Numbered from the stretch's first letter, positions 18,427-62,636 are shown. The stretch: 64,000 bases of DNA from Vicugna vicugna (GCA_013265495.1 MU057640.1:1311303-1375302); one strand, 5' to 3'. Numbers and translations: made by a program. The notes: generated by a model from the letters alone, not told the origin.

Positions 18427-18504
18427 CTAACAACTTCACCATCTGAAACTGAGGGGGAAATGGGACAGTCAGCCTCTCCATAGTTAAGGTCACCGTTCAT
18501 ACTT
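18427..18504 (-). CDS. SIPA1L1: Candidate 78-nt cassette exon, adds RSMNGDLNYGEADCPISPSVSDGEVV
   Basis: Acceptor gttgttttacttattttacatag|, donor TAG|gtaaat; phase 2-2, open (3' end of ORF 18423..18662). Confidence 0.6.
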
Positions 18505-18954
18505 CTATGTAAAATAAGTAAAACAACAGCTGAAGGAGATCTTAATGCTCCTCCTGGGGACTCAGTTCGAACGTAGGTCTGAAGCAGAACAGAGGGAGAC
18601 GCAGGCACGTTTACAAGCAGGACTGACAGCTGGGGAAGAGGCTTAAGCTCAGACTCCGACACGTTTAGTCCTTGAGTCTGGTTCTTATTTACCGCAAATG
18701 ATTTCTCTTAGCTTACCCAATAGACCCTCAAGACATAAAACGTATTATGGCATTAAATAGTCATGAATTGTCATAATTATGACTTTAAGTCATCAAGAAC
18801 AATTTAACAGTGTTTACAGTATCTGTAACTACAAGGTGAGTGTCTGGCACCCTAGGGCTGAGCTTCATTCAGGGAACCCATGTGGCCCCATCGCCTCTCC
18901 CCCACGCCGGCTGTCACCCGTGGAGATGACGCGAGGTGAAGAGTGGTGACTGAC

Positions 18955-19069
18955 CTGCTGTAAGACTTCATCTGGGCCAGAGCCTGGTCCTCAAGCTGGT
19001 CACTGTTGGATGCAGCACTCAGAGGGCGATGGTTTTCATCACTAGCAGCAAAGAACGAGGCTCTCTGGA
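18955..19069 (-). CDS. SIPA1L1: SIPA1L1 coding exon J (115 nt, phase 1-2): [38 protein letters not shown]
   Basis: Acceptor ctcccttttccag|T, donor CAG|gtcagt. Confidence 0.95.
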
Positions 19070-20491
19070 CTGGAAAAGGGAGAAGAAACCATTCAGAATT
19101 CTGGAGACACAGCCCGGGCCCTCTCTATCAGAAGCCAAGCAACGGCCTAATGGACAGTCAACTCTAATCGACAGGGAGGAACGCATCGGAAACCTTATCT
19201 CCCAACCCTCCCAGGACAACATGTTTTACCTGGAAGAGGATAGTAGCCTTGTAATTTCTTTTTTAAAAATAATTGTTTTGAATCAATTTCTATTCCTGCT
19301 TTTCCCTTACTCATCAAAGTAGCATTCTGTTCAATGCTTCCCTGGGAACAAAACTTGTGCCAAACTTCCAGACCAAGGCTTTCCACTCAGTGACGCCATG
19401 CAATGCATTAAAGACCTAGTATGCAGCTGCGTGAGGCTTTGTGAAGGGTGTGCTCCACGAGGCGCCTGGCCACCTTGATGGGCTTTAACCTAGAGCCACA
19501 CCAACTTCAAGCTGGAGCTAAGGAACAAAATCAAAAAAATTTCCCACTAAGAAAACAAAACTGATTTTATATGAAGGAGAGTGACCAACACGTTGAAATT
19601 TACAATCAAGTGAGTGCTGGGGACTTGTCATCAGCTAAAATGGGGACTCACTGTTCACCGCTCTATGGTTGCCTGACTTTTGAATTCCATGGCCTAGTCA
19701 ATTTCCTCTGAAAATTGGAGCTTGACTGAATAGCAACTTTCATTTTTCCAAGCAAGGGCAATAGAACAAAACCTCAAAAACCAATCACTTACTAGCATCA
19801 TCATTTTACAAAGAACATTTTAGCACCAAAAAAATTTTGGAATGACAATTGTAGAGTCAGTATATTAAAAAAAAAAAAAAGATACATGACAACCTTGTGT
19901 CAGCACAGAAAAGCATTACTTCTAGTTTTTTGTATTTCAGCAGAGCATGTCCGTACTAGTCTAAGGGCCCGCATTTAAAGACCACTGGCTTAACACAAGC
20001 ACAGAGCCAGTGGGCTGACCAGGAGCACTGCAGACAGAAAGCGCGCTACCACGCCCGGGAGAGATGAGTGAGGGGGCGGAGGGAAGACCTGACGTTTGTG
20101 GGGACTGGGGCTGGGCCCAGCAGGACAAGCATCCTAACACATCCAGCTGTGCATTTGGCAATGATGAAAACACATGATGAAAAACTCTCTCTGGACCTGT
20201 GTTTTCAGTCAAGTGATAGCTGGGATTCCTCTGCGCTCTGCCCATCCCACGTGGAGGGAGGGGAGGCATCCGAATTATGAACTCCTATGTGAGGAAACAC
20301 CAGGTTCCACCTGATTAAATCCAACAGCATGGGTCCTACCACGTGCTCGAGAACTGTCAGCTCACCTGGTTTCTGGCTGTGCTGGTGAAATGCATGTGCT
20401 GTCAGTGTGTCCAGAGCTGTCAGTATGTCCAGAGCAGCTCACACTGCCCACGACCTCAGCGTGGCCCAGCCTGGATGGTCAGCGGACTCAC

Positions 20492-20638
20492 CCTCATAGG
20501 CCTTGGCGGCATCCACTAGGTTGGACCAGTCCAAATCTGCAGCAGCGTCGGGCAGCGGCATCAGGCCGGGGTCGGGCATGGGTGGCCTCCGGGTCTCCTG
20601 GACATCAGTGAGTGAGCTGTCTGAGGCTGAGAACTCTC
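20492..20638 (-). CDS. SIPA1L1: SIPA1L1 coding exon I (147 nt, phase 1-1): [49 protein letters not shown]
   Basis: Within ORF 20439..20654; acceptor tcccttcctgcag|G, donor AGG|gtgagt. Confidence 0.95.
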
Positions 20639-23360
20639 CTGCAGGAAGGGACAAGGAATAAGAGACGTCTCATGCCTGCAGCAGAACCACTCAAAATTTT
20701 ACACATTTCCTGTTTGCCACGATAGATCTGTAAGTTATTCGTTACCTGGAATCAGTTTCTAGTCTAACAGGCCATTAGTGGCCATTCTAAAGCTGAGTGG
20801 AACTAGGAACTGGCTTCCTCCAGTCCTCATTTTTTTTTTTTTAATAACTCCCACTGTCCCATTTCTAGTGATGGGAGTCACGGAAAAGTTATGAAGGGGA
20901 TGACTTCACAGAGAGCTGGGTTTTGCAGCCAAACCAGGGAGGCTCGTGGATGCCTGTGGGAGGGGATACTAAAGCTTATTTTTACCTGCATTGGACTCTG
21001 GGATCTGACTGCCCTCCCTGTGGACTCCCAGCACCCCTGGGACTGGGGAGGGACAGACCCATCCGTGGCCCACATCTGTCCTATATCCCAGGGATGGCCC
21101 ACTGGTTTCTCCAGTTGGGTGTATCCAGGGTGGTGTGAGAACCAAATCCGAGCACGTGAGAGTGAGGGCTGGGTCACCCAGTGGAGTAACACAGGTTAAC
21201 TGTTGTCAGCATCCTTCTCCTTCCAAAGGACACAATAAGTAACTCTCGGCATCAGTTTTGGTTTCCAGCAGCCCAACATCCCAAGCCCCTTCTAAGGTGG
21301 CAATTAAAAAAAAAAAAATACAAGTATTAAACTATAGTAACAACTCCTCTTTGCCTAGGCTGGGCACGGGAGGAGCGGGTGCAACGAGCCACTCTGTGCA
21401 GCGGAGGTGTGCTGCTACGGCTCAGGCTGATACCGGCAGAGAAGGGCGGGAAAGGGAGCTCATGAAATGAAGATGCTCTCAACGCGGCAGAAGCTGGGGT
21501 GGAAATGAGGGCAGAACGTGCGCCTCCTTGAGATGCGCCGCCCGCAGAATCCACGCAAACAGCCAAGAGTGAAGCTCTCAGTTAAAAATCTATAAGCAAC
21601 TCCAGAAATACCTGTTTGTGAGGAGTTGCCAATGATGACAGCCTGTAAACCAGAGTATATTTAGTGCTTGTTTTCCTTTCAAATTACACAAAGAACCACT
21701 CTGAAGCACAGCTGCTAGTTACTAATGTGCTTAAAATTAGCACAATTTTGAGTAAATGGAAACCAACAGATATTGCCTGATAGTAAAGGCTCAGTTCTAT
21801 TTAAACTTGCTCCCACCAAGGATGAATAGCAGGAACAGACAATTCTGTGTGTCACTCACAACCCTTCAGCCCTTTTATCCCTGGGGCTCAAATTTCTATT
21901 TGGGAAAGAAAGAAGTCGCGCATTCCTGAGACACCTATGGGGTGGCCACGCCCACAAGACCAAGGCGGAGGGATCAGCCCAGCAAGGATCGGCCAGTTCG
22001 GGGTGTGGGGGCACTGCGGCTGCTGCCGACTCTCAGGAAAGCAAGAAGAGGTGATGGGAGGCTGCTCCGAGAGGGGGCACCCGTTCCTTCCCTTCCTCAG
22101 CGCTAGGCCTTCCAGCCCAGGCTCCCTCGGCTGGACAGAGACCGCGGGCGGGAGGCAGATTTCAAGGCCGTTCTCTTAGTGTGTGAGCTTCGAGGAGGCA
22201 GGGTCTACTGTAACGCAGCACATGCAGACAGGCCTTCACGGAAGGTTTGCTATTATCGCTACAAAGGTTAAAAAAGGGACATGAAAGCAGCATTGGAGGT
22301 AGGCAGGAAGTTGTAGGAGGGATGGACTTGAGGGAAGAGCGGTCCCAAGGCAGGGGGAGGAGGGGTGGTTACCATTTAGGTCACTCTTAGGAGGCGGTGT
22401 CTAGAGTCTGGGTGGTAAAAAGCAGTCATTTCATGTGCCAACTTTGGTTCCTGGAGGGTGACCTCTCAGAGCAAAGAAAAGCCAGATTCGAGCTGCAGTT
22501 GGATGTGAGGAGGGAGGAGGCGGGGTGATCCTTGAGTGATGTCTGCCGAGGGTGACAAGGGGAGGGAGGGGCTGTGTCGGGGAGCAGGATGGAGTTGAGG
22601 GACGAACAGTCATGAGAGGGAGTTGAGAGCTCAGGAATGATGCGGGAAGAAAGCAGACTATGCAAGCAGGAGAGCTGGAGACAGTACTGACCCAAAGCAG
22701 CCGCAGAAGGAAGGAAATGGGGTATCAATGGACACTGAGGGAGGGAAAGCTCTAGCAGAATTCACCAAAGGATAAAGCACAAGAGGGAGGTGGCGTTGCA
22801 GCCGTACTTATGAAAAACAAGCGGGAACACAGGTTTCATGATAAGTATCTGCTGTGCTGGGCTACAGTGGGGAGGGCAGGTGCAGAACCCTGGAATGGAG
22901 CTGGACAGAGAGACAAGGAAGAAAAAACAAAATCCACAGGCCCTCACTATGGCCCTTAATAACACTGGGATCTAGTAAGGTCATTGAGGAAATCAGGCAT
23001 TTATGAATCAAAGGGAAAAACATGGAGATGCTCATCAATAAGCCTTTTTCTAAAATAATACCCACTTACTCAGTGCATGAATGAATGAATGAGTGCATGA
23101 GTCAACAGATGAGTGGCTGACACCACAGGTAATATTCTCACATCTGGGGAAAGGCAGAACAAATGGCGTGGCTCGGGAGAGCCAGTAGATACAATTAAAC
23201 TAATAATATGTAATAATAAAATAATAAATAATGAAACTAATCTAGTGTTAGCCAAATTTGCCCAATCCTAACAGTAGCTGGTAAAAATACTAATTCCCAC
23301 ACCACACTTTTATATTCAAATTCAGCAGGTCTTAGGTGAAGCCTGGAAATCTGCATTTTT

Positions 23361-23483
23361 GGGGTAGGAAATGGGGGGAGAGGTAATTAGATTTATTTAT
23401 TTTTAAATGGAGGTACTGGGGATTGAACCCAGGACCTCATGCATGCTAAGCATGTGCTCTACCACTGACCTATACCCTTCCCC
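23361..23483 (-). mobile_element. Vic-1-type camelid tRNA-derived SINE inserted in a MER5 relic
   Basis: GGGGAAGGGTATAGGTCAGTGGTAGAGC...GGTTCAATCCCCAGTACCTCC with A/B boxes; near-TSD cctggaaatctgcatttt (23342-23359) / cctgaaaatctgtatttt (23485-23502). Confidence 0.9.
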
Positions 23484-23509
23484 ACCTGAAAATCTGTATT
23501 TTCAACAAG

Positions 23510-26500
23510 TAGCCCAAAGGAGAGCTTTTACACACATCAGGTGCCCGAGTTTTGTGGCTGCTCCATAGGGGCTGCCCCTCAGTCACCTGGCTCTGAAGGC
23601 CAAGGGGGGCGTATGTTCCTGGGTCCCACAGAACTCTTAACAACTGGAGACACAGTTCCTGGCAGGGTAGTACCCCTGGGGAGCTGCTAGACAGCAGACA
23701 GAACCCCCCCACTGCAACTCCCATCTTTCTAGGGAAGAAGACCTATTTGCTTGTCCTAGAGTGCTTATCCTTGTGGTTCCACAGGACTGTACAGTTTTGC
23801 ATACTTTAACAGCTGCTGCCTGAGGTTCTGGTTTCTAATCAGCCTGAATCTAGGTGCTGACTGAGATCCTCCCCTTGGAGACACTGACAGGTTTTGTCAA
23901 ATCCTCAACTACAGGAGGCTAATGAACATAAAATAGGCTGCTTGGACAATCACAAAGGTTTGAGAGACAACCAGGAGCTTGGGCAGGGTAGAAAGATAAG
24001 GTTCATCTTCTACATGAGGTGACTCCTCAAGACTAGGAGAGATGGCTGTTTTATCTAATGCACAGAAACCAACAGAGAGAGTCAAGGAAGACAGAGAAAC
24101 AAAGGAAAATGTCCCAAATGAGAAAACAAGAAAAACCTCAGGAACAATCCTCAGTGAAATGAAGGTAAGTAACCTACCTGATGAAGAGGTCAAAATGATG
24201 GTCCTAAAGATACTCACCAAGCTCAGGAGAAGAATGGATGGACACAATGAGAACTTCAACAAAGACACAGAACATACAAGAAAGTACCAAACAGAAGTCA
24301 CAAAGTGAAGTATACAATAAGTGGACTGAAAAATACACTAAAGGGTTTAAACAGCAGACTAGATGGAGCAGAAGAAAGAATCAGTAAAGTCAAACACAGG
24401 GAACTTTCCCAGTCAGAGCAGCAAGAAGAAAAAAGATTGAGAAACAGTGAAGATAGCTCCAGGGACTTATGGGGCAACATCAAGTGGACCAACATTCACA
24501 TTATAGGGGCCCCAGAAGGAGAGAGAAGAGGGCAAAAAACTTGTTTGAATGACTGAAAACTTGCCTAACCTGCAAAAAGAAACAGATATCCAGATCCAGG
24601 GAGTCCAGAGTGCTCCAAAACGATGAATCCAAAGAGATCCACACCAGAACATATGACAAGTAAAAATGTGAAAAGTTAGGAGGAGAGAATCTTAAAAGCA
24701 GCAAGAGAAAAACAACTTGTTATGTGAAAGGGAACTCACCCCCACTAGACTACCAGCACATTTTTCAGTAGAAACTTTCAGAAGGGAATGGCATGAGATA
24801 TTCAAAGTGGTAAAGGGGGAAAAAAAAACTGCCAACAAAAAACACTCTACCTTGCAAAGCTGTCATTCAGAATTGAATTCCAGACAAGCAAAAAAGCTAA
24901 GAGTTCACACTAGTCCCCAGCCTTACAAGAAATGCTAAAGGGTCTTTTTTAAGCAGAGAGAAAGAATGCTAATTAGTAACAAGAAAACATATGAAAGTAT
25001 AAATCTCACTGGAAAAAGTAAGTATATAGTAAAGGTGGTGGGTTAACCACTCATAAAGCTAGTATGAAGGTTAAAAGACAAAAGTAGTAAAAATAACCCT
25101 AACTACAACAGTTAGTTAAGGGATACACAAGATAAAAAGGTGTAAAATGTGACATAAAAACATAAAACGGGGGGAGAGCAAAAATTAGAGCTTTAGAATA
25201 TGTTCAAACTTAAGTTGTTATCAACTTGAAATACACTGTTATAAATTGTCTTAAGTAAGCCTCATGCTAACCACAAAGCAAAATTCTATGGTAGATACAC
25301 AAAAGATAAAGAAGTCAAAGCACACCCCTAAAGAAAGTCATCAAACCACACAGGAAGACAGTAAAAGAAGAAAGGAACACAGGAACTACGAAACAGCCAG
25401 AAAACAATTAATAAAATGGTAATAAAAGTACATAACCATCAACAATTACCTGAAATATAAAAGAAAAATTCTTCAATTAAAAGACATAGAGTGGCTAAAC
25501 AGATAAAATATCCAGCTCTATCTAATTGTTGCCTTTAAGAGACTCACTTCACAAGTAAGAACACATACAGGCTGAAAGGGATGGAAAAAGATATTCCATG
25601 CAAATGGAAACCAAAAGAAAGTTGGGGTAGCTATACTTAGATGAAACAGACTTTAAGACAAAGAAGATCATGACATAATGATAAAGGAATCATTCAACAA
25701 GAGGATATAACATTTGTAAATGTTTATGCACGCAACATAGGAGCAGCTAATTATATAAAGCAAACGTTAAAAGACCTAAAAGAATAGACAGAAATACAAT
25801 AATAGTAGAGGACTTTAATACACCACTTTCAACAAATGATAGGTCATCCAGACAGAAACTAAGTAGGGAAACAATGGCCTTAAATGACATGTTATACCAG
25901 ATGAACTTAACAAACATACATAAAACAGTCCATTACAAAGCAAAAGAATACTTGTTCTTCTCAAGTGCACATGGAATATTCTCCAGGACAGACCGTATCT
26001 TAGGCTACAAGTCTTAGTAAATTTAAGAAGAGTGCAATCACATGAAACATCTTTTCTGACCACAATGGTATGTACTAGCAATTAATTACAGGGGAAAACT
26101 GGAAAATTCACAAATAGGTGGAGATTAAACAACATGCTACTGAACAACCAATGGGTCTAAGAAGAAATCAGAAGAGAAATTAAAAAAAAATACTTTGAGA
26201 CAAATGAAAATGGAAATATAACACACCAAATTATGGGATGCAGCAAAAGCAGTTCTAAGAGGGAAGTTCATAGCAATGAATGTCTACATCAAGAAACAAG
26301 AAAGATCTCAAACAACCAAATTTTACATCTCAAGGAACTAGGAAAAGAAGAATAAAGCCCATAGTTAGTAGAAGGAAGAAAATAACAAAGATCAGAGTAA
26401 AATAAATGAAATCAAGACTAAAAAGATAATTCAAAAAAGACCGATGAAATTAAGAGCTGGTTCTTTGAAAAGATAAACAAAATCGACAAACGTTAGCTAT

Positions 26501-29500
26501 ACTCAGAAAGAAAAAACAGACAGAGGACTCAAAATCAGAAATGAAAGAGGAGATGTTACATGTGATACCCCAGAAATACAAAGGATCATCAGAGATTGCC
26601 AACAAACTGGACAACCTAGAGGAAATGGAACACACAACCTACCAAGACTGAATCATGAAGAAATAGGAAATCTGAACAAACCAATTACTAATAAGGACAT
26701 TGAATCAGTAACCACAAACCTCCCAACAAACAAAAGTCAGGAACCCAGACAGCTTTACTGATGAATTCCAAAAAACATTCCAAGAAGAATTAATACCATT
26801 CCTTCTCAAACTCTTCCAAAAAAACAGAAGAGGATGGAACACTTCCAAACTCATTTAATAAGGCCAGCATTATCTTGATATGGAAACCAGACAAGGACAC
26901 CACAAGAAAAAGTTATAGGACAATATCCCCAATTAACATAGATACAAAACTCCTCAGCAAAATATTAGAAAACCAAATTCAACAATATGTTAAGAGGATC
27001 ATACACCATGTTCAAATGGGTTTTATTACAGGGATGCAAGGATAGTTAGGTAATGTTACTCACCACATTAACAAAATGAAAGCTAAAAATCGTATTATCA
27101 TCTCAATAGATGCAGAAAAAGCATTTTACATTTTCAACATCCATTTATGATTAAAAACTCTCAATACCCCAAAGTAATAAAATATCTGGGAATAAATCTA
27201 ACCAAGGAGGTGAAAGAATTATACACAGAAAACTATAAACCATTGATGAAGGAAATGAAAGAAGACTTTAAAAAATGGAAAGATATTCCATGCTCTTGGA
27301 TTGGAAGAATCAATATTGTTAAAATGGTCACACTGCCCAAGGCAATCTACAGATTTAATGCAATCCCTATCCAATTACCCAGGACATATTTCACAGAACT
27401 AGAACAAATCATAATAAAATTTATATGGAACCATCAAAGACCTAGAATTGCTAAAGCATTACTGAAGAGAAAGAAAGAGGCTGGAGGAATAACTCTCCCA
27501 GACTTCAGACAATACTATAGAGCTACAGTCATCAAGACAGCATGGTATTGGTACCAAAACAGACATATAGACCAATGGAACAGAATAGAGAGCCCAGAAA
27601 TGAACCCACAAACTTTTGGTCAACTCATCTTCGACAAAGGAGGCAAGAATATACAATGGAATAAAGACAGTCTCTTCAGCAAATGGTGTTGGGAAAACTG
27701 GACAGCAGCATGTAAAACAATGAAGCTAGAACACACCCTTACACCATATACAAAAATCAACTCAAAATGGATTAAAGACTTAAACATAAGACAAGATACA
27801 ATAAACCTCCTAGAGGAAAACATAGGCAAAACATTATCTGACATACATTTCAAAAATTTTCTCCTAGAAGAAATAAAAGCAAGAATAAACAAATGGGACC
27901 TAATGAAACTTACAAGCTTCTGCAGAGCAAAGGAAACCAGAAATAAAACAAGAAGAAAACCTACGGAATGGGAGAAAATTTTTGCAAGTGAAACCGACAA
28001 AGGCTTGATCTCCAAAATATATAAGCAGCTCATACGACTCAATAAGAAAAAAATAAACAACCCAATCCAAAAATGGGCAGAAGACCTAAACAAGCAATTC
28101 TCCAAGGAAGACATACAAATGATCAAAAAGCACATGAAAAAATGCTCAATATCACTAATTATCAGAGAAATGCAAATCAAAACTACAATGAGGTATCACC
28201 TCACACCAGTCAGAATGGCCGTCATTCAAAAATCCACAAATGACAAATGCTGGAGAGGCTGTGGAGAAAGGGGAACCCTCCTACACTGCTGGTGGGAATG
28301 CAGTTTGGTGCAGCCACTATGGAAAACAGTGTGGAGATTCCTCAAAAGACTAGGAATAGACTTACCATATGACCCAGGAATCCCACTCCTGGGCTTGTAT
28401 CCAGAAGGAAATCTACTTCAGGATGACACCTGCACTCCAATGTTCATAGCAGCACTATTTACAATAGCCAAAACATGGAAACAGCCTAAATGTCCATCAA
28501 TAGGTGACTGGATAAAGAAGATGTGGTATATTTATACAATGGAATACTACTCAGCCATAAAAACCGACAACATAACGCCATTTGCAGCAACATGGATGCT
28601 CCTAGCGAATGTCATTCTAAGTGAATTAAGCCAGAAAGAGAAAGAAAAATACCATATGACATCGCTCATATGTGGAATCTAAAGACTCATGGACAGAGAA
28701 TACAGACTTGTGGTTACCAGGGGGGTAGAGGGTGGGAAGGGATAGACTGGGATTTCAAAATTGTAGAATAGATAAACAAGATTACACTGTATAGCACAGG
28801 GAAATATACACAAAATGTTATGATAAATCACAGAGAAAAAAATGTGACAATGAGTATGTATATGTCCATGAATGACTGAAAAATTGTGCTGTACACTGGA
28901 ATTTGACGCAACATTGTAAAATGATTATAAATCAATAAAAAATGTTAAAAAAAAACTCTCAACAAAGTGAGTATAGAGGGAACATACCTCAGCATAATAA
29001 AGGCCAAATATGACAAGCCCATAGCTAACATCATACTCAACTTTAGAAAGCTGAAAGCTTTTCCTTTAAGATCAGGAGCAAGACGAGGATGCCTACTCTT
29101 ATCACTTTTATTCAACATAGTATTGGAAGTCCTAGCCTAGACAATTAGGCAAGAAAAAGACATAAGAGGCATCTAGGAAAGATGGAATAAAACTGTCACT
29201 ATTTGCAGATAACATTATTTACAGAAAACCCTAAAGACTCCACCAAAAAATTCTTAGAACTAGTCAAAGAACTCAGGAAAGTTGTACGACACAAAATCAA
29301 TATACAAAAACCTGCTGCATTTCTATGTGCCAATAACTATCAAAAGCAGATATTAAGAAAGAAATCTCATATATAGTTGCATCAAAAATAATAAAATGCC
29401 TCAGAATAAATTTAATCGAGGTGGTAAAAGACCTGTACACTAAACAGTATAAGACACTAATGACAGAAACTGAAGAAGATATAAATGAAGATATTCAATG

Positions 29501-32260: not shown

Positions 32261-33874
32261 AGCATTATGGTCCCCAGGGGAGCAGCCATGGTGCCCAGAA
32301 GGGATCCTCAGAAGCTTGTCATGTGACCGCACGTCTGCCGGGCAACAGGAACATTTGAGCATCACGATATATTAACTCAAATAATAGGTGGCTCTTGATA
32401 AACATTAACTCCTAATATAGTTAATGAGTTTGAGAGATTATTTTTTGAGATGGATTTCTTTTCATGAAATAAAAATAGGGGAAGTCATCTTTATAAATGA
32501 CAAGTACTTATACAGTTGTATATAAATGACAAAAGCTCCAGACGGCTATATCTTATCAACGTCTTATGCCTTTGCGACCAGATTTGATTTTCACTTGAGA
32601 TTTTTCTGCAAAGAGCAAGCTCCTGAGAATCCATTCGTGGTGAAACCACAGACACATTAATAATATTGAAATATCCAGCATGCTGAAAGCCAGCAGGGCA
32701 TTTGGTCCGTTAACAGAGGTGTCCTTATTCAGTTCCTTTTAGATGATTGTTCACCTTGGCAGGGGGAACAGTGTGCAGAACAGGCGAGGATGTGAGTAGG
32801 AGGGCTGACTCACTGCTGGCAGGAAGCCACTGTCAAACTTTCCATGATACTTTGAAGGGACAGAGAGATAATGATACGGCAACAGCTCCATTTAGGAGGC
32901 TGAGAACAGAGTTGAGGTTCAGACTCATTCACGTGTGGAACATACTTCCATCTAGCAAGCCTAGGGTTATTCAAGTCAAAGCTACCCACAATGTGGTACG
33001 TGCAGTTGCTGCATAAATATGAAACAATGATTAATCAGATGCATTGTAAATGAGCCCCAGGTGTAGCCAGCTGTGTTCACTTTTTAAAATCCACAATGAG
33101 TTAAACCCAAAGTATGTATACATGCTTACCTTGAAAACTAAGCCGCTGTGATAAATGCTCTGTGAGTCTTTAAGTGGAGGGGACTCGGTATGGAAATTTC
33201 CCTTCTCACTTCACAGAGAAGAGTGGGCATTAGAGAAGTTAAATGACTTGTTAATGGTACTTAAAAAAAAAATAAAAGCCAAATCATCTCTCTCCACCTT
33301 CAAGGTTCTAGGACTATCACATAAGGCTCCTGCCTACGAGGCCAGATGTCAGATCTCTCTATTCAAAACCTGCTCTCAGTCTTTTCTTGCACCTCTGGGT
33401 TCAGCAGAGGGTTTTCCTTTTCCAGTGACTATCCCCACCCTGATGGTTTTACAGGAGGGAGATTTCCCACCAGTTCTGGTTTGGCCTCTTTGGGAAATAA
33501 TATACTTCAAGGCAGTAAACAGCTACCTTGAAGAGATCCTTTGAGTAATGTGATTTATTAAAAGGCATAATATCCTCCCCTAAAGGGAGGCAGGGGAGAA
33601 GGAAGGAAGCCCATCTGCCCAGATGCTCTCTACCCATTGAGAAATACCAGGACCTAGTCTGGTCCAAGCCCTGGGAAGGCCCCTGACCCCATCCCTCTTC
33701 AATTCCTGTCTCAAAGGTGTGCACACATGCCCAGTTCCCTAGGGCGCCCTCTGCCTTCCTTGCAGGTCATAGCGAGACTGCTGAGTGGCACTGCCCTGGG
33801 CTGCCGGCCCCAGGGAGAGAACCACAATGGGGTGGATGGCAGACTCGGAAGGGGTTTTAGAAATCATTAGGAAG

Positions 33875-34088: not shown

Positions 34089-36783
34089 TCGAGCCTGGGC
34101 CTCTATTTCAAAGGCGAGGAGCAAGGCCTTGAGACGGGGCATCTTGCGTCGGGTCAGCCTCCTGCTCTCCTCTTGCTCCTCTCAGTCCTCCTGGCTCTCA
34201 GTGACACAGGTCACCCGCACATGCATTCAGCAAGTATCCCCTCTTCCTAAACATTGGAGCCGCATGAAGCCTTTTCCTTTGGTCTGTATCTGAGAGTGTT
34301 GGCCAGAGAGCAGGACTCTCAGTTTGTACTACCGTCTATTCACTTGCCAGACTGTTCACTCACGTAGCCCTCAGGGAAAATACGGTTATCCATCTTTGCC
34401 TGCCAGTGAGCTTTCTTAGACTGTTATGGCTCTGCCATTTTCCTTGAGGTCCGAGCTCAGGGCAGCTGCGTGGGGCCCGGCAGCCACCCCACCCCCCCAG
34501 CTCCAGCCCGCCCGGCGGAGGAGCGCTGCCCCGTCGTGCAGCAGGCATTGCACGCTGCTGGCAGGCGAGCCCGGGAATAACCCCGCCACTGGATATCCAT
34601 GGTGGCTCGCAGGGAGCACTTGCTATCTGAGAAAGCCCCTGTGGCCTGAGCGGGTTCCAGGTATCACAGCCCAAAGCTGGCCACTCCTTGTACCCTGACG
34701 CCTGATGCAGTGGCTCGGAGCCTGGAACCAGGCGGGCCTGGAAGACGTCTCAGTGGCACGCTGGCCCTACTGACACAGCAGAGACACAGTTACTCACAGG
34801 GTGAGTCTCCAAAGACACACAGAGCTACTTAGCTGAACTCATCTGAAACTACCCAGAAAGGATGAAACAAGAGAAAACAGAGCATATTTCCAGCTCCTGG
34901 CTCCAGCCTTTTCACCACAATAGTTCAGCCGGCAGAAGCACTTTCGTTGCAGAGGTCTGCACAGTAATATAATCACAACAGAAAGAATGTGCACTCCTGT
35001 TTTAAATAGGAATGTTAAAGTCATTCATTTTGGAAATAAAAGCCAAGACCTGGAATAGGAGCAAGACAGACATTTGCTTTCAATTACTTCCACTGCATGA
35101 GTAAATCAAAAGAATGAAAGCTCTGAGCTTGCCCCTTTCCGAAGTGTTAAACTCAGAGGTGGAGGAAAGATTCCTTTCCAGGGCAAGTTTTATTTTCCTC
35201 TGGCCTCAAAGGAAAAATCTGAAATAATTTTTATTTTGAAACTGGTAGTTAAAAATTTTAATACACCTCTTTGGGTTTTTGACGGATAGAGAAAGAAGTT
35301 TCAAGTACTATCTTTTGCGAGGTTGCTAAGGGAACCATTTGGCCCCGGGGTGATGAGTCACAGCTGTTAAGTGCTGGGTTATAAAACAGAAATCACAGAA
35401 ATCAAGAATGGCAAGTCTTTAAAATGATTTATGGTGTCCATGTTTATGTTAATAAATCAATCGATTTCTCAGCAAAACTCCAGCATGGTCTCTGGAGTAC
35501 ATTTCATCTCTATAAATGTTGATTTGTAAGTTTAGGAGGTATATCTGATCTATCTGGAGGAAGACGCACACGCACGCGCGTGCACAAACACACACAGAAG
35601 CACATACATGCACACACACTAGAAGGGTGACCAGAAAGCCTGGATGAGACAAGACCACACAGCTCATCCAGCTGGGCACGTCTCTTGCACTCTGATCATG
35701 TTTTGAGGATGGTGAGTGGTTAAGGAAACATGTCAACTTCCGTTTTCAATCAATTCTCAAAGGTCTTCTTAAATTAAGCTTTCTAGTCACTTCAAACAGA
35801 CTATAAATCATGTAACTAAGAACCTAGAGGACTGAAAATGGTAAAGTTTGCATCCGTGAACTTCTGGGGCGGTGGTGGGCTCACTTCTCTGGGCACCCAC
35901 CTCACCCCCAGTACACTGCAGACAAAAATGCCTTCTGCATAGAGTGAAATACCTTTGGGCCCAGCTCAACCAGCACCAGCTCTGTATCTGGGAGTGCGAG
36001 ACAGCAGACATTAGCAGCCAAGAAATCAGAGAGCCTTCCGTAGGCTTCAAGGATCCTCCAAGCTGAGATGAGCAGAAACAAACCCTTCCACGTGGTCATG
36101 CAAAAGGTCTGGCCACTGACACACCCACGAACTCTGAGCAAATGCTTGGGATTTGATGGGGAGGAATGCTTCTAGAGAAGGCATTTGGAGTCTGGAATTC
36201 TGAGAGTGAAGTGGAGAGGAGGCTTTATGAAGTGAAGAGAGTCTGGAAAGTTTCAAAGGTAAATGTGCAACCTGTGTGTGCTGCATTGAAGAGCATGAGC
36301 TGGTAGGTGTGCCTGGCCAGGGGCAGAGGCTAGGCCAGACGGCAGGGTCCTGGGGACCCCCCAGGGCGGGAAGCACACTGGGAGCTGCCTGTGGGAGGAG
36401 GAGGCCCCTGTGGACAGAAGGTACTAAAGCCCTTTCAGAAAACTTTCTGTCCGACACAGGAGCCATGGGTATCTCTGCAGAGTTCTGAGAAGCAATGTCA
36501 TTTGAGTAATACTGTTCAAGAAAGAGTACAGCTTGTGCACTGTGAGGAGGACGCCCTGGAAGGAAAAAGCCCTGGGGTGGGGGCCGGTTATCTAAACCCA
36601 GACTTGAGAGCAACGGCTCCAGGGACAGAGTATTTGGAAAACACTAGAAACTAATTATTGAGACGGCTGGGGTGATGGCAGGAAGTGGGCTCTGATGAAG
36701 AAGAGCCGGAACCACCACCTCCTGGAGGCTGTAACTGCCCGGCCGGCCTCTAACTGCTCTTTACCCCAAGCTCTGCCCTGTAC

Positions 36784-37341: not shown

Positions 37342-37404
37342 TTTCTGACAGTCCCTCTGGTGCCTCCTGGCCTAGTTAGGATTACGTGGGAAAGCTGTGA
37401 CAGA
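37342..37404 (-). CDS. SIPA1L1: Candidate 63-nt cassette exon, adds NLSQLSHVILTRPGGTRGTVR
   Basis: Acceptor cttgtccttttcatgcag|, donor AAA|gtaagt; phase 2-2, open. Confidence 0.5.
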
Positions 37405-37729: not shown

Positions 37730-37954
37730 TTTCTTGTGTCCATAAACCCCACGGAGTTAATGGTTCCTTCGGGCTTCTTCCATCCGATCAGGTACTTGCT
37801 AGTAGCGCCCTGGCGAGGGTAGAAAGTCCTAGGACCGGAGGAGGAGGAAGAGGAGGAGGAGAAGGGAGGGGCGGCAGGATGAAGTTCTTCTTTGGGTGAA
37901 CTTCTGGCGCTGCTGAAGACAACCGGGCTGGCAGAGTGTCGGGAGCTCATGGTA
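37730..37954 (-). CDS. SIPA1L1: SIPA1L1 coding exon F (225 nt, phase 2-2): [14 protein letters not shown]...[24 protein letters not shown](K)
   Basis: Core of ORF 37726..38034; acceptor ctttcccccgcag|T, donor AAA|gtaaga. Confidence 0.95.
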
Positions 37955-42974: not shown

Positions 42975-42976
<2 letters not shown>

Positions 42977-48612: not shown

Positions 48613-48654
48613 CAAAAATTCACAAGGACTTTATGCAGACTCTTATGATAACGC
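48613..48654 (-). CDS. SIPA1L1: Candidate 42-nt cassette exon, ...HA-RRYHKSLHKVLVNFC-TMSS
   Basis: Acceptor gagtgcttttatttatag|, donor TTG|gtaaag; phase 2-2, open; UGCAUG at 48716-48721. Confidence 0.45.
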
Positions 48655-52182: not shown

Positions 52183-52306
52183 GGGGAGGGCATAGCTCAG
52201 TGGGCAGAGTGCATGCTTAGCAGGCAGGAGGTCCTGGGTTGGATCCCCAGTACCTGCATTAAAAAACAGTAATAATAAAGTAAAATAAAATTAAGTTAAA
52301 TAAATT
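52183..52306 (+). mobile_element. Vic-1-type SINE
   Basis: ggggagggcatagctcagtgg...ggtcctgggttggatccccagtacc + A-rich tail; TSD aaataatgcatt / aaataatacatt (52169-52180, 52307-52318). Confidence 0.9.
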
Positions 52307-52501
52307 AAATAATACATTAGGATTGAAGGCATAAAGTATGTTGGAGGCAAATAAAAGGCAGTGAATATACAAACATAACTGTCGTGGCATGAAACCACCC
52401 CCCCCTTTCTTAATACACTCCCGAGCAAAGGGAAGCGGGGGGAGGCCGGGAACTGGACGGAAGTGGCCCCGAGTGGGAGGAGCGGCAGGAAGGGCGGGTA
52501 C

Positions 52502-52944
52502 CTTGCGTGGGAAGCAGCGTCGTTGATGCTGAAGGCGCTGTTCTCCCTTGTCAGAGGGCTCGCGCCGGCCTGGCTCTTGGTGTGGATGTCCAGGCTCAGG
52601 GAGGACTCGGCTTTCCGGTCCATGCCGTGGCTCTCTGCCTCTAAGGTCCGATCTGCCATGGAGATGACTTCGCTGGAACTGTGCCACAGGGGCGCCACCT
52701 TCTCCTTGCCCGGCCCTGAGCGCGGCGACGACGTGGCCGCCCCCAGGGAGGCTGTGCTGCCGTGGCTGGGGCCGTAGGAGGTGGTGTCGATGCCGCTGTC
52801 CGCGGAGGTGCCCTGCAGATAGTTGTAGCTGTTGAGCTCGGACTCGGCGCGGTCCCCGTCACACCACTTCTCGTCGCTGTGGGCGCTCGACGCGTTGCTG
52901 GACAGGGTGTTGCTGCTGGAGTGGCTGGAGTAGTGGCTGTCCGA
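52502..52944 (-). CDS. SIPA1L1: SIPA1L1 coding exon E (443 nt, phase 0-2): [16 protein letters not shown]...DSGIDT...SINDAASHA; CpG-rich
   Basis: Core of ORF 52291..53040; acceptor cttcccttgcag|T, donor AAG|gtaccc. Confidence 0.95.
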
Positions 52945-53419
52945 CTGCAAGGGAAGCAGGATTTCCTTAAGGTCAGGCTTTGCTTCTGGAACGACCCTGG
53001 GACATGTGTCTATAGTTACGGGGTTTGCAAGGCACAACAATTCCTATTCCTTTGACAAAACAAAGGAAGGCAGGAGGTACCTGGAAAAACCTATTCAGAA
53101 GACTCCATGGCAGAGAGCGCTGGAGACATTTTTTTTAAAAAATTCACTTTTTATTACTTGGCTTATGCTAAAGTATCAAGAGTACTGAGTTCATTTTAAT
53201 AAGAAAAATAACTTCAACTGTCATTAGAGTCCTTAATATCTTCATCTTAAAATAGCAAGTGATAAATCCAAACGGCTTATAGTTAGAAAAACCCTACTGA
53301 TCAGAGTAAAAAGAAGGCAGAATATAAAACGTTTTCCTAGAGACATCTCTTCTTTTGCCAATTAGGATCTATTTAGGAGACAGCTTTCTAAGGAGTGCTT
53401 AGAGGTAAAATTTATCCAG

Positions 53420-54475: not shown

Positions 54476-54889
54476 TGTGTCAGAACCTTTGCTGCAAAGT
54501 GGCTTAGTTGCTCAGAAAGAACATTTGATAGCTTACCAAAGAAACAGGATTTCAAAAGACACCTGAGTAAAATGATATTTAAATTGGTGGGAGGCTGGAA
54601 GTCCAGATTACTTGGTGGAGATGGAAAGAAAAGAGGAGGAGACTTGTGAGTGGGGCTCGTGGCTGAGGAAGGAGCATGCTCTTTGTTAGCTGCGGGGGTG
54701 GGGGGTGCGGAGTAGGGGGACAGGCCTGCCTCACCTCAAAGTGAAAGATCTCTTCCCCTGGAAAAGGGATTAATCCCAGTTACTTTCCTGTGCAACTCCA
54801 GTTTTTCTTAGCAACAACGTTTGCATTACAACACCATCATTTATTTCTACCCTTTGTAATATCCGGACCTGGGCTGTAGAATTTGCTGG

Positions 54890-55974: not shown

Positions 55975-56093
55975 ATGCCCTTGTTTGTTCGGAGACAAAT
56001 GAACCACCGGGTCCTGACGCATCAGTCTCCCGCTGGGGCTCTCTCGGAAGGCTGGCAGTACCTTTGATACTGCTGGGAGGTGGCACGTTGGCT
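55975..56093 (-). CDS. SIPA1L1: SIPA1L1 coding exon D (119 nt, phase 1-0): [40 protein letters not shown]
   Basis: Acceptor gctgtattccag|A, donor CAT|gtaagt. Confidence 0.95.
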
Positions 56094-56512: not shown

Positions 56513-56536
56513 CATGACACTTTGGAAATATTTTAC
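56513..56536 (-). CDS. SIPA1L1: Candidate 24-nt extension of exon C via downstream donor; adds GKIFPKCH
   Basis: Consensus donor ATG|gtaagt 24 nt downstream of CAG|gtaaaa; in frame, no stop. Confidence 0.55.
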
Positions 56537-56599
56537 CTGTATATTCATGCTGCTCGAGGACAAAAGAATTGAAATCCTGAGGTCCTCTATAACTGTAAG
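56537..56599 (-). CDS. SIPA1L1: SIPA1L1 63-nt symmetric (phase 1-1) exon [22 protein letters not shown]; skippable in frame
   Basis: Acceptor ttttctgttgtgcttag|C, donor CAG|gtaaaa; peptide recalled from the long SIPA1L1 isoform. Confidence 0.92.
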
Positions 56600-57576
56600 C
56601 TAAGCACAACAGAAAAGACACACAGCAACTAGTTTACTTAAAACAATTGCTTCCTTTTGGACTCCACTGGCGTTCAAGATGGGGTTCCAAAGGTACAAGG
56701 TAAGTGATTGGGCCTCTCTGGCGCACCTAAGAGCTAACGGCAACAATTCTGCATTTCTGCGACACCATTCCTAACGCGTACGGGACTGGGCAGCAAACTC
56801 TTTGCGTCTCACTCTCAATCATGTCCAAAAGCGGAGAGGCAGAAAAACACACTCCACTGAGAGTGAGCCAATTAAACAAGCTAAGCTCTGCGTCCCCACT
56901 GGGCATCAGTCTATCACACACTGATGAACACCGACAGGTGGGTCTGGCTAACGGATAAGAATCTGCACAACATTTTCAATCGGTGACCTGAAGGGCATTC
57001 AACAACTGTGTTCTTACGAATTGAGCATTGGGAGGTCAGCCCTTTATACACTCAGTATAGTGTCCTAAGGAGTGAGAACACAGTAATTGTACTTCTTGGT
57101 TCCTCCCCAGCGTGGCTTATACCCGTGAAGCCCCCGATTCCTTCTGGAAAAAGTGGGGTTATTTTTCTGGAATGCTGGAAAACCAAAAATTACAAAAAAA
57201 TTATTTGAACATTTTATTTGGAGCCTTTGATTTTGGATGGAGAAAGGCTATCATTTGGTAAAAAGGGCTTCTCTGGCAGGCTCTAGGGCTATCATCTTTT
57301 TTTTTGTTTAAAGGTAGACCTTACTAAAAGAGTGAATGAATGTATTAAAAAGATTCACCCATATTAATTTCAGAGCCTGTCTATGAAAAGTGGGATGCCA
57401 TGCAACTAAAGTGGATGTGAGAGAAAAAAAGACTAGAGGAACGTTTACGTGAAGGAATGAATACAGGTCTAGAACGAACCTTGTAATTACCCTTTCCAGC
57501 CCCAAGATACTGCTTCACTCCCCATATAACTTCACGAGTGGGACGTGTGACAGTGAATGGTGTACAAAGGACTCAC

Positions 57577-57600
57577 TGGCAGCTTTGTTCAAAGCCTGCA
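57577..57600 (-). CDS. SIPA1L1: Candidate 24-nt microexon (VQALNKAA), phase 1-1
   Basis: Acceptor gctttttttggctcctag|, donor CCA|gtgagt; open in frame. Confidence 0.3.
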
Positions 57601-58320
57601 CTAGGAGCCAAAAAAAGCTGCTAAAGTCATGCTGAAGAAGGGACCCTTTTCACATGTGTCGTTACCATCTCAACAGTATCAAAACATATGGGATTAAATA
57701 CATTCTGTCAAGAGCGGAACCGTGGATCAGAATATGCTCAGGTTTTCTGTGGGGGGTTGGGGGGGACGAGAGTGGGGAGTGACAGATGGCTTCAATAACA
57801 AGGCACGTCTCACTGAAGTGATGGAACAAAGCTTATCCTCAGAACCTGAGAATTACGTTTCTCTTCCTCAACTCCTGGCTTAGCTGAAAGCATCTCCATT
57901 CCCTTCTATGTTTGTGGGTTTTTGGCTGACTGCCCCCATCCCCCTTGAGCAGCTTGGAGCTCCGGCTTGGCCCCAGCCTCTGCACCGAGGAACCCCTCTC
58001 CCCAGGCATGGAACCAGGGGCACAGACATTAAAACAGAATGAAACGACCTATTTGCAGAGGAGATTAAACTATGGGGGTCTTTGCCTTAAAAGTTATCTT
58101 TTTTTTCAGCCCTGGAAATTTTACTTCTTTTTATCCAACTTTGATGGGAAAGCTATTAGAGGTAAGATCAAGGGAAAAAACCCCAACAGTTCTGATCAAG
58201 TCCCTGATGTACCAATTGTGTGGATACTAAATCCCTGGTGCTACTGTGTTGACACTTAATCTTGTCTCATGGTAAAATTTTATTGTATCATCTAGTGTTT
58301 GGGTGTCATTGTAGAACTGC

Positions 58321-58352
58321 AGAGAGAGAGAGAGAGAGAGCGAGCGAGAGAG
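58321..58352. repeat. (AG)n microsatellite
   Basis: (AG)10 followed by cgagcgagagag. Confidence 0.9.
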
Positions 58353-58936
58353 GGCGGGCCGGCTGTGCACCAGAAACCTAAATGAAGGCTCACTCTTGCA
58401 GATCTTCCCATCCAGCAGTTTCAGACTGCTAAGATACCTCCTTAGCTGACAGTTTAATAGTGAGGGGAGGGATGGTATAAAGGGAGGAGAAAGACGCTAA
58501 CTAAGCCACAGATGTGACGAAACACCTGAATCTCTTTCCCACTTTGTACATAGTTAAAAAAAATGTTAAACTCAATATTAAGAACACCAACTCATCTCCC
58601 AGGGCACTCATGCCTGGCAAAAACAAACAAACAAACAAAAACAAACCAGGGGGGAGGGAGGGAGGTACTCAGGTCCCAGGTGGCTTGATACTCTGGCACT
58701 TTAATCTGGGGGCTGAAAATAATTCCCGTGTGCTTCCTGTTTTTTAAGTCGGGGTCACTGAGGCTTCCTTGACTTTTCTCTCAGGTACTAACTGGCTTTC
58801 ATTCACACGTATGCTACTGACTGAATCTTCAGTCACACTTACGAACCAGGGCTGTATAATAGAACAGAAGGCTTTGATGACATCACCTTGGTATAAAAGC
58901 AACTTGCGTGTTGTGTTGTAGGAATTAGTGACTTAC

Positions 58937-59061
58937 CCATCTGGTCGGCGATGCTATCCTCACTTCTCTGCCAGCTGGGTGTGGATTTCCCGCTGCCACC
59001 AATTTCTGACTGGGTGTTCTGCCTGTCGATGGAGGCTGGGGATCGGCGGCTGACTCCAAAC
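58937..59061 (-). CDS. SIPA1L1: SIPA1L1 coding exon B (125 nt, phase 2-1): [41 protein letters not shown]
   Basis: Acceptor atccccacag|G, donor TGG|gtaagt. Confidence 0.95.
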
Positions 59062-60344
59062 CTGTGGGGATTTCACCAAACAAAGGCAAAGACATTAGGA
59101 CCTCACCCATAGTGGAAGAGAAGGTCGTCCTGGGTGTAACGAACTCAACTCTAATGACAGGGACTCCCAGTTTTCCTTGCACAGCTGTACGTTTGTATTC
59201 ACCCTTGTGCATGTGTACGTGGGTGCCGGAACTGTGTTCGTTATGGTCAACATACCTCCCTCGGTTCAGATAAGTATGCATGCTAAGTAAACAAGGGCAG
59301 GGGCCATTAGCACTCAGCTAACCCAAGATACACAGAATAAGAAACCCAAATCTTCTGGCTCCTGTGGAGCTATGCTCAGATTTTCGTTCACAGCCCAAAG
59401 GAAAATATCACCATCCTAGCGTTCCATGTGTATCGTCCAACTGGCACATTCCAGGGGTTTTCTCTTAACTCAGTAATCTGCTAAATCACTAAGGCATTCA
59501 TTCTTGAAATAAGCATTTTCTGAGCACTTACTCTGAGGTCTGAAAGACAAAGACTGCTACCACTCACATTATACAGGGACCACTTTCAAAATGTGTAAAT
59601 TTCAATTTTTAAAAATTGAAATATAGTCAGTTTACAACATTGTGTTAATTTCTGATGTCCCCAAAGGTGATTTAAAACGTACACGTTTTTGAAGATACTA
59701 CTACTTGAAACGCCTTTGAGAGGGCAATTTGGAAAGAGGTAAACTGGTATATATAAAGGCAAATGTCTATTTCTGGAAAGATTAGTTATTTAAAGAGTCC
59801 ATTTATTTTTCCCTGTGTGGGATAATAATAATATAATATATGCTTAATTAAAGCATATGCCTTGATTAATAATATCAGCAAAGTAAATATTGACTGAGCC
59901 CACGGAAAAGGGCAGGAGTGTAAAATTCAGAGTCGTGGAAATTTAGAAATCTGGGTGTGGTTACTAATGAACTTATGCGTAATCTATACGAGAAAACACC
60001 AGCAGGGCCTGGATTGACAAGTGTCTTATATGCTATAAACTGATAAGTGCATAGGAAGGACCAAGGGGAGTACCGGACAGAGCAGGACAAGAGGAGGAGG
60101 AAGACCCAGGAAGACCGCAGTCAAGCTCAGCTTCCCCACCCAGATCCACTCATGTTTTATCTTTCTTTGTTTATAAAATGGCAACACTATTATATGGATC
60201 CAGGGAGAAAGTCCATATAAAAGCATTTGAAAAGTAGGGAAGGCTAGAAAATATTTTAGTAAAACTCCTATTCTAACATCTCCCTCGTTATTTTTTGCAC
60301 AAATGACAGTTGTCTACAAACTCAACTCAGAAACATCACTGAGT

Positions 60345-60482
60345 GGGGGAGGGTGTCGCTCAGCGACAGAGCTGCTGCTTGGCATGCATGAGGTCCTAGG
60401 TTCAGCCCCCAGTACTTCTGTTAAAATAAATAAATAAACAAATCTAATTACCTACCCCCACCACAAAGAAAGCAAAAAAAAA
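60345..60482 (+). mobile_element. Vic-1-type SINE
   Basis: gggggagggtgtcgctcag...gcatgcatgaggtcctaggttcagcccccagtac...aatctaattacc; perfect 14-bp TSD agaaacatcactga (60329-60342, 60483-60496). Confidence 0.92.
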
Positions 60483-62224
60483 AGAAACATCACTGACCAT
60501 GAACAAAGTTACCCCCATTAAAAACAAACAAAACCCTTGACTTATGAAAACTTTCAGCAAAAGTGCTCATTGGAAAAAAAAAACCAACTCACTAGTTAAC
60601 GATCTTTACCATTTCCTAAGTAACACCCTTGTTTAGTTTAGAACAGCGAATATCCTCAAACTGGCTCTATGATTCTGTTCTCTGTGTGCACTAAATTAAG
60701 ACTTTTTCAAAAAGGCACAGAGATAAAAGTAGAAGTGGACGCCAATCTTGCTTTTACTCTTTGGTAGCAGTGCAAACTAAAGACAAATTTTTAAACCTCC
60801 GAATTTAAAGCCAAATGCTTTTGTGGCTGTCTGCTTTTAAATAAATGACAAAGCTAGACTGTCTTTCAATTCTGCCTTGAAAACCATCTTCATCCAATGA
60901 ACTTTTAATTTCAGTTCTCACACAGCCCCCTCATTTACCGCGGGGCCAGGGGGCCAGGGCTGTGAAGACCCTATCCTTAAGAAGCCCAGAAAAAACCTGT
61001 TCTAATTTTACACTGTGCCTCTTTTTGAAAAGCTTAATTGTCCCTTTGTTTGGAGGAGCGCTTAATACTTCAAGAGTCACGGTTCAGATCTGAAGGAGTT
61101 TTTCAGTAATCATTTGGCTGATTCATGAGACACATTCAGTGACCAAGAACTTCTACCTCGTGAGCCAGTCCATTGCTCTCCGGAGCAGGCTGACAGCTTT
61201 GAAATACCTTCCTAATAATGGGCTGGAAATTTCATCTCTATTATAACTTTCATTTATTGATCTCAGGTGCCCTCACAAGCAAGTTTAATCCCTCGTCTAA
61301 GAACGCTGGAAGAAAGCCACCGTGGGCTCCTCGCCCCCGCAAGGCTCCCCGCCCGGTTGCACATCCTCAGGTATGTTTCTCACACCACCACCTCCAACGC
61401 CTCGTTAGCCCAGTCCGTCCCTCCCTCTAGACGTTCAAGATTCCTGAGAGCGTGTGGTCTCAGAACACATCTCCAAGGAAGGGAGAACAGACTATGTCTT
61501 TTCATCAGTGTTGCTTTTTAACTCTTTCACTCCCATCCTAAACTTGTGCAGATGCCTTTTCTCCCTCCACTCGAGTAGGGCAGGTCTTATTAACCAGCCT
61601 CTTAAACTGCATCTTTCAGCTGATTTGGATGGTCTCAACATCCTTACACACAACGCACACACGCGGACACTGAGCCCACCGAAGCATGGGGAGGGCAACA
61701 AAGGGGCAGACTACATTTATGGACAGCCAGTGTGTGTGGACCTATTATTACCTCATGCTCTGGAGCTTTTCCAAGTTTCATTAATGAGTCTGTAGCAGAC
61801 TCCATACATGCCTGCTTCACTGTCCACCTGCACCTACTTATTTTTACTGGACTAAGCGGCCGAGTAGATGTAATAGTTGTTCCCTTGGTAAGCATAAGTT
61901 TAGGATCAAACCTGGCCCATGAGCAATGCATGTGAATCAGACACAAGGTTCCTTGCATCACTGATACAGACAAAAATTGCTTGGAACCTGAAGGGAAACA
62001 CCGTATCATCATCATCTTATAAAGGCTCATCTGGGTAAAACTGATGGTATACAGCCAGGTAAGTAATCACCAGGTAACCTCCAAAGCAATCGGGGGGAAC
62101 CCTCAATACCACCTATGGCAGGTTTTTACCTGGCAGGCAGATTAAACATTCAGTTGAATAATTACCACCTCATTAAAAAGTGCAAGGTGAACACTGGAAT
62201 CATGTTTCTGACGTTAATACTCAC

Positions 62225-62272
62225 CAAAACTTATGTTTCAAATTACATTTTGGTATACGTTTAGAGTACATA
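62225..62272 (-). CDS. SIPA1L1: Candidate 48-nt cassette exon, adds MYSKRIPKCNLKHKFW
   Basis: Acceptor ctgtttactttcattttag|, donor TTG|gtgagt, upstream CTAAC branch motif; open in the phase-2 frame. Confidence 0.55.
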
Positions 62273-62630
62273 CTAAAATGAAAGTAAACAGTGATTTCTG
62301 TTGTTGCTGTTAGCGCATTTACACTTCATTGCTGTACTACCACTGAAGTTGCAGTGAATTCTTATTTTTGAAGTCAAACTGGACCATTTAAAATCTGCTA
62401 ATTAAAACAAGAAATAATTAGCTGGGCTTGCGGTGTGGTATAATAATAATACTTAACTCATAAAACCTTTTGCAGGGGCTCATAAATAGAGAGCTAAATT
62501 TTTTTTTCTAATTGTCACTGAAGTAATTAAAATAAGAAATGTGCATTTTAAATATGCCACCAAAGGAATCCTGGGGGAAGTGAGGGGGTTGGGGAGGGAA
62601 ATATATTTTATAATGGTTTTTACTACTTAC

Positions 62631-62636
62631 TTTCCA
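62631..62636 (-). CDS. SIPA1L1: Candidate 6-nt microexon (TGGAAA), phase 2-2
   Basis: U-rich acceptor ttgtggttgtttttgttaaatgtttatgttag| and consensus donor AAA|gtaagt; frame-preserving; prediction only. Confidence 0.4.

Follow-up and report, generated by a model that had tools for sequence, protein, structure and literature searches.

The window analysed here is a stretch of 64,000 nucleotides (nt) from Vicugna vicugna (GCA_013265495.1 MU057640.1:1311303-1375302), which contains on its minus strand the last 12 coding exons of SIPA1L1 (SPAR), i.e., the 3′ half of the camelid gene. In the introns of this part of the gene an earlier note had picked out eight short segments, each with AG directly upstream and GT directly downstream, and had proposed that they constitute a hidden layer of frame-preserving cassette exons and microexons. 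It is found that combinatorial in-frame splicing of the region is real, but that it proceeds via annotated events. One of the eight segments, a 24-nt extension of exon E3, is, as judged from the matching proteins of other species, a genuine and previously annotated alternative 5′ splice site with conservation among placental mammals, while the other seven are very probably ordinary intronic pseudo-exons.

The gene in the window and the eight elements

The open frames on the minus strand are pieces of one large protein. The frame of 250 amino acids (aa) at 52294-53043 has 561 protein matches; the listing covers the best 120 of them and is headed by a Camelus dromedarius entry with 98% identity. 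The exon map, which was made by tblastn of three SIPA1L1 proteins and by spliced mapping of the Bos mutus isoform X3 (P0011), gives exons E1 to E12 (Table 1), with the intron phases from E1 to E12 being 2, 1, 1, 0, 2, 2, 0, 1, 1, 2 and 0. The DSGIDT motif in E5 and the NAGNAG tandem acceptor of E11, both of which had been named in the earlier note, are located in the window. According to PMC2570879, DSGIDT is the beta-TRCP phosphodegron of SPAR and lies within the Act2 domain, and according to PMC2875228, a minigene with the SIPA1L1 NAGNAG served as a model of 3′ wobble splicing.

The sequence facts given for the eight elements stand. All eight have the AG and the GT on the minus strand, and after the exon mapping their positions agree with the introns or the exon edge that had been implied. 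Moreover, all eight are multiples of 3 and stop-free in the phase of the flanking exons, with 0 internal stops when they are included in silico into the mapped coding sequence, where they add 2 residues (62631), 16 (62225), 8 (57577), 8 (the extension of E3), 14 (48613), 21 (37342), 10 (33130) and 26 (18427).

The two further properties that had been ascribed to the elements hold in part. For comparison, the real exons have acceptor scores from about 0 to 11.3 and true GT donor scores from 0.1 to 6.2. Pyrimidine-rich acceptors are present in some of the picks but not in 62631, 33130 or 56513 (−5.4, −2.3 and −6.4, respectively), the last of which is not an acceptor-defined element. As for the claim of repeat-free sequence, a search of the 2.03-Gb assembly with each candidate region gives no match besides the region itself, although old diverged repeats may remain. 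A control stretch derived from a long interspersed nuclear element (LINE) gave no match in the same search, where common words are skipped; since the candidates do match themselves, they are not high-copy repeats.

Annotated in-frame splicing of the region

We gathered 294 SIPA1L1 proteins, comprising 120 from the query with the E5 frame, 42 new ones from the query with E8 (the listing covers the best 120 of its 347 matches) and 132 cluster members. Among them are RefSeq X-isoforms from numerous mammals as well as proteins derived from Logan transcripts. The 291 proteins of at least 60 aa were aligned to the spliced product of the window, with 214-268 of them spanning each junction.

The recurrent events in these proteins are all frame-preserving and all have matching signals in the window. 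E1 is skipped in about 30 of the 291 proteins by a heuristic count, including Dipodomys merriami X4 (P0240), and its skipping leads to isoforms of about 1,733 aa. E3 is in 49 and absent from 197 of the 246 proteins that span E2 to E4. The first 44 residues of E5 are missing in 7 proteins, which fits the internal acceptor at 52812. In a set of 282 proteins, E6 is skipped in 17 and its first 42 residues are missing in 4, which fits the internal acceptor at 37828. Finally, one Ser is missing at the NAGNAG acceptor in 53 of the 162 proteins of the first set. Thus, of what had been proposed, the general picture holds: the disordered C-terminal half is alternatively spliced with the frame preserved, via the annotated E1, E3 and E6, the internal acceptors of E5 and E6 and the NAGNAG acceptor.

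Compared with the known splicing of SIPA1L1, i.e., the NAGNAG minigene as it is described in PMC2875228 and the RefSeq and Logan cassettes, the window is alike in having the matching exons and internal acceptors. The known in-frame events, which fall within the disordered Act2/GKBD-side region, have been annotated and occur repeatedly in different species, whereas the seven candidates are in no protein examined.

A conserved distal donor of E3

The extension of E3 is the second-best junction in the spliced mapping, and the in-phase translation of positions 56536-56513 of the window is GKIFPKCH. The identical peptide directly follows E3 in the proteins of Sus scrofa (P0192) and Delphinus delphis X1 (P0197), and GKTFPKCH does so in Dipodomys merriami X1 and X4 (P0238, P0240). 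The annotated isoforms that carry the insert are D. delphis X1 (XP_059860274.1 and others, 1811 aa), S. scrofa UniRef100_A0A4X1U128 (1811 aa) and D. merriami X1 (XP_069887025.1 and others, 1811 aa) and X4 (XP_069887042.1). The extension in the window is like these inserts in position and length, and in sequence it is identical to those of pig and dolphin and agrees at 7/8 residues with that of the kangaroo rat. It differs in that use of the distal donor in the camelid itself is only presumed, no camelid insert isoform being among the proteins listed. Since the same insert occurs at the same junction in other mammals, the extension is read as a real and conserved distal 5′ splice site, one that their annotation already contains. 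The caveat made in the earlier note, that some of the elements may already be in predicted isoforms, is therefore borne out for this element in pig, dolphin and kangaroo rat.

Based on this reading, the spliceosome would choose the distal GTAAGT over the weak proximal GTAAAA, by which GKIFPKCH would be added; the eight residues would thereby come to lie ahead of the DSGIDT degron, within the Act2 region. The distal donor is the stronger of the two (6.2 versus 3.1), yet it is rarely annotated, the 8-residue insert being present in 4 of the 49 proteins that contain E3. It is also observed that TGC motifs lie close to the AG of the E3 acceptor.

The seven intronic elements

In long mammalian introns, intronic pseudo-exons, i.e., decoy pairs of splice sites, abound. 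We scanned 46,098 nt of intron for AG..GT pairs of 3-120 nt, with the wrong phases and the antisense strand as controls. With thresholds that admit all eight elements, 1,295 pairs are found. The length is a multiple of 3 in 444 of them, and 209 have an open frame in the true phase, as compared with 170 and 186 open in the wrong phases and 178 in antisense (nominal phase). With the thresholds of the weakest real exon, there are 384 pairs and 137 multiples of 3, with 61 open in the true phase versus 51 and 59 in the wrong ones. With both scores of at least 2.5, there are 50 pairs and 21 multiples of 3, with 14 open in the true phase versus 10 and 13. For the seven candidates, in-frame openness in the true phase as compared with the wrong phases is not above the non-coding level at these three thresholds.

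Of the 14 pairs in the stringent set that are open in phase, four (62225, 57577, 37342 and 18427) are those of the earlier note, and the other 10, which were not listed there, are of equal or better strength. Moreover, three of the donors have stronger rival acceptors: that of 62631 has one with a score of 4.1, which gives an out-of-frame segment of 73 nt; that of 57577 has one of 4.9, which gives an out-of-frame segment of 19 nt; and that of 18427 has two, of 4.9 (22 nt) and 6.6 (16 nt), both of them frame-breaking. Since a search that favours in-frame hits is expected to give picks that are frame-preserving and stop-free, the in-frame property of the seven is explained by selection from a large decoy pool. 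The seven elements would then be chance AG..GT pairs from a pool of hundreds, picked as multiples of three that are stop-free. They are like intronic pseudo-exons in being AG..GT pairs with plausible signals and with no phase preference, from which the extension of E3 differs, as it is not a pseudo-exon.

Among the stringent pairs, 50 are on the sense strand as compared with 21 on the antisense strand, a more than 2-fold excess that probably reflects the richness of the transcribed strand in T and pyrimidines (AT skew).

The proteins give the same picture for the seven elements. No insert of 2 residues corresponding to 62631 and no insert corresponding to 62225 is present in the 214 proteins that span E1/E2. 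The same is true of 57577 in the 246 proteins spanning E2/E3, of 37342 in the 260 spanning E6/E7 and of 33130 in the 266 spanning E7/E8. There is no insert matching 48613 in the 261 proteins spanning E5/E6, and none matching 18427 in the 263 spanning E10/E11, where the inserts in other species differ in sequence. With the open reading frames taken as queries, that of 37342 (42 aa) has 0 matches among 1.84 billion representatives, and that of 18427 (40 aa) has 18 word-sharing candidates with none at an expect value (E) of at most 10 among proteins of 71-2000 aa. In scans of metagenome contigs for the orthologous intron DNA with E8 and E5, there were 593 and 195 pattern matches, respectively, and none was confirmed. 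A search of sequencing runs with E5 listed no holder recorded as RNA, with 14 rows guessed as RNA, 4 unknown and 5 single-cell raw-read runs. Since none of the 214-268 proteins that span each junction has a matching insert, the proposed hidden layer, with its seven further cassette exons and microexons, finds no support, and we infer that the seven are not used in mRNA.

Three of the seven elements, 62631, 57577 and 33130, have the length of microexons (6, 24 and 30 nt, 30 nt being the size limit) and are multiples of 3. The neuronal microexon programme reportedly consists of exons of 3-27 nt and depends on SRRM4. Neural microexons are characterized by an enhancer with UGC just upstream of the 3′ splice site, together with a strong pyrimidine tract. 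In the three elements no TGC is present in the 40 nt upstream of the acceptor, and the acceptor scores are −5.4, 3.5 and −2.3, respectively. While 62631 and 57577 are like neuronal microexons in their length and in preserving the frame, they differ from them in having no TGC nearby and no trace in the proteins. In supplementary file 2 of MicroExonator (2,988 rows) there is no entry at chr12:82.1-82.5 Mb, the interval in which we take Sipa1l1 to lie in mm10, and the symbol SIPA1L1 is missing from the searched files of the MicroExonator supplements and of the supplements of two further microexon papers. A literature search for SIPA1L1 together with microexons returned only a study of a 3′ untranslated region, which is irrelevant here.

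Lineage-limited inserts and other observations

Besides the recurrent events, several inserts limited to certain lineages were observed. In bats and reindeer, 3-5 aa are inserted at the E10 donor (P0049, P0050, P0055, P0168, P0176, P0193), and in the E10 donor region of the window there is no GT at the offsets that match these inserts. In elephants, an insert of 15 aa lies before E11 in 13 proteins (P0077, P0079, P0133, P0201 and others), and one wallaby has an 11-aa cassette at E4/E5 (protein group P0024, P0025, P0029, P0263). Neither the wallaby nor the elephant peptide has a tblastn-short match in the window at E≤50. The bonobo isoform X1 (P0194) has an insert of 41 residues, which by its resemblance we presume to be Alu-derived. 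None of these lineage-limited inserts equals a listed candidate.

In the Ser-rich tract of E6, about 5 residues that are present in almost every other mammalian SIPA1L1 protein (TSSQL or variants) are missing from the product of the window. This gap may come from a 15-nt deletion specific to the lineage, the tract being of low complexity, or it may be an alignment shift.

In the GenBank model of Camelus dromedarius P0001 (447 aa), real exons are replaced by intronic decoys at two places. The first, of 23 nt, is at 54735-54757 on the minus strand, has the strongest decoy signals of intron E4-E5 (4.6, 6.7) and replaces E3 and E4; the second, of about 73 nt, is at 34694-34766 on the minus strand in intron E7-E8 and replaces E8. 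The use of these decoys has the look of an artefact of ab initio prediction.

Long open frames with LINE-like translations are present in intron E8-E9, at 27087-28679 on the plus strand and 27623-28195 on the minus strand, and downstream of the gene, at 2645-3883 on the minus strand and 3129-3701 on the plus strand; two of the four are near-identical to each other. Among the proteins, P0125, which is JGI-sourced, resembled a mammalian genomic open reading frame.

Table 1. Coding exons of SIPA1L1 in the window and the eight elements, with approximate log-odds splice scores (positions counted from the first letter of the window)
Feature	Position	Strand	Description	Acceptor score	Donor score
E1	63715-63566	minus	150-nt in-frame cassette	0.7 (true acceptor)	
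E2	59061-58937	minus	spliced mapping		
E3	56599-56537	minus	63-nt in-frame cassette; weak proximal donor CAG/GTAAAA		
E4	56093-55975	minus	spliced mapping		
E5	52944-52502	minus	DSGIDT at 52783-52800; internal alternative acceptor 52812 (−132 nt)		
E6	37954-37730	minus	225-nt in-frame cassette; internal alternative acceptor 37828 (−126 nt)		
E7	36949-36784	minus	spliced mapping		
E8	31782-31536	minus	spliced mapping		
E9	20638-20492	minus	spliced mapping		
E10	19069-18955	minus	spliced mapping		
E11	16463 or 16460 to 16379	minus	NAGNAG tandem acceptor		
E12	15732 to stop at ~15590	minus	spliced mapping		
62631	62631..62636	minus	6 nt, intron E1-E2	−5.4	4.7
62225	62225..62272	minus	48 nt, intron E1-E2	2.5	4.6
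57577	57577..57600	minus	24 nt, intron E2-E3	3.5	3.2
56513	56513..56536	minus	+24-nt extension of E3, distal donor ATG/GTAAGT		6.2
48613	48613..48654	minus	42 nt, intron E5-E6	1.3	0.0
37342	37342..37404	minus	63 nt, 780-nt intron E6-E7	5.9	4.7
33130	33130..33159	minus	30 nt, intron E7-E8	−2.3	6.9
18427	18427..18504	minus	78 nt, intron E10-E11	3.2	2.8

Discussion

Several points weigh against regarding the seven elements as pseudo-exons. The splice scores come from a simple log-odds matrix with approximate frequencies, and not from MaxEntScan or SpliceAI. The two largest protein clusters have 889 and 167 members, of which 40 each were read and 15 each listed, and no RefSeq camelid isoform is among the proteins listed. 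The isoforms with the 24-nt extension were missing among the 162 representatives and emerged only among the cluster members, so that the protein test is insensitive. One of the seven, 37342, has the best splice signals among them, with near-consensus scores at both ends. Finally, local dinucleotide shuffles give 37.3 ± 6.5 stringent pairs as compared with the 50 observed, and 5.4 ± 2.1 pairs open in phase as compared with the 14 observed, with 0 of 40 shuffles reaching 50 and 0 of 40 reaching 14, respectively.

Note that the shuffle excess was considered as a sign of real exons and was rejected. The enrichment is just as strong in the wrong phases (10 and 13), a good number of the pairs are trivially short at 6-12 nt, and sites are shared, with 43 acceptors and 37 donors making up the 50 pairs. 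Since the enrichment is equal in the wrong phases and the sites are shared, the excess gives no sign of coding constraint.

One alternative is that the hidden layer is real, with several of the seven being low-inclusion, tissue-restricted (e.g., neuronal) or lineage-specific exons that were missed by annotation and by contig assemblies. In its favour, the elements preserve the frame, are free of stops and all lie in single-copy sequence, 37342, 62225, 57577 and 18427 pass both stringent thresholds, and the gene uses many in-frame alternative events in this region; the extension of E3, being real though missing from the 162 representatives, shows that such variants can hide. By contrast, the true phase does not exceed the wrong ones in the frequency of in-frame openness, stronger frame-breaking acceptors rival at three donors, and there is no trace in the proteins spanning each junction, nor of the open reading frames of 18427 and 37342. 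The acceptors of 62631 and 33130 are poor, TGC, a motif that is taken here to be relevant, is lacking close upstream in 62631, 57577 and 33130, and the mouse interval that we take to be that of Sipa1l1 has no MicroExonator entry. We therefore consider this alternative very unlikely; rather, the evidence says that the hidden layer arose artificially from a search directed at in-frame hits.

Within this alternative, the element at 37342-37404 has to be looked at on its own. It lies just downstream of E6 and has exon-like features: the branch-point-like motif TACTAAG precedes the AG by about 30 nt, the pyrimidine tract is good and the donor is GTAAGT. Although it is the least unlikely of the seven, there is only a slight chance that it is a genuine unannotated in-frame cassette exon. 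If it were one, it might be used together with E6, or instead of it, in a tissue-specific manner, and its 21 residues would be added between the Ser-rich segment of E6 and the start of the GKBD-side region. The element 18427, of 78 nt, is a second and weaker possibility as a real exon.

It is likewise very unlikely that the elements have instead a role at the RNA level without entering mRNA, as decoys or as intermediates of the recursive-splicing type that bind U1/U2 and tune the use of E1, E3 and E6 or the removal of long introns, since the excess of strong pairs on the sense strand, which together with the 50 pairs standing above the shuffles, the position of 37342 in a short intron adjoining the cassette E6 and the exon-like look of two other decoys to the predictor behind the dromedary model P0001 would speak for such a role, is expected from the T-rich transcribed strand (AT skew) with no function needed.

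We thus return to the reading in which the seven elements are pseudo-exons and in which the in-frame splicing of this part of SIPA1L1 is that of the annotated events and the extension of E3. Two cautions follow for work of this kind. In long introns, whether a short AG..GT segment preserves the frame says almost nothing about its being a real exon; and isoforms with small inserts can go unseen when proteins are clustered at 90% identity.

For the biology of SIPA1L1, if the hidden layer were true, it would mean a larger isoform space for a synaptic RapGAP whose stability, according to PMC2570879, is set by the nearby DSGIDT phosphodegron. As for the extension of E3, the distal donor, being the stronger one and yet annotated in so few of the proteins containing E3, merits a look in RNA data. 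The result that survives is a modest one, namely that the signals required for the long E3, a form that is annotated, are present in the species of the window.

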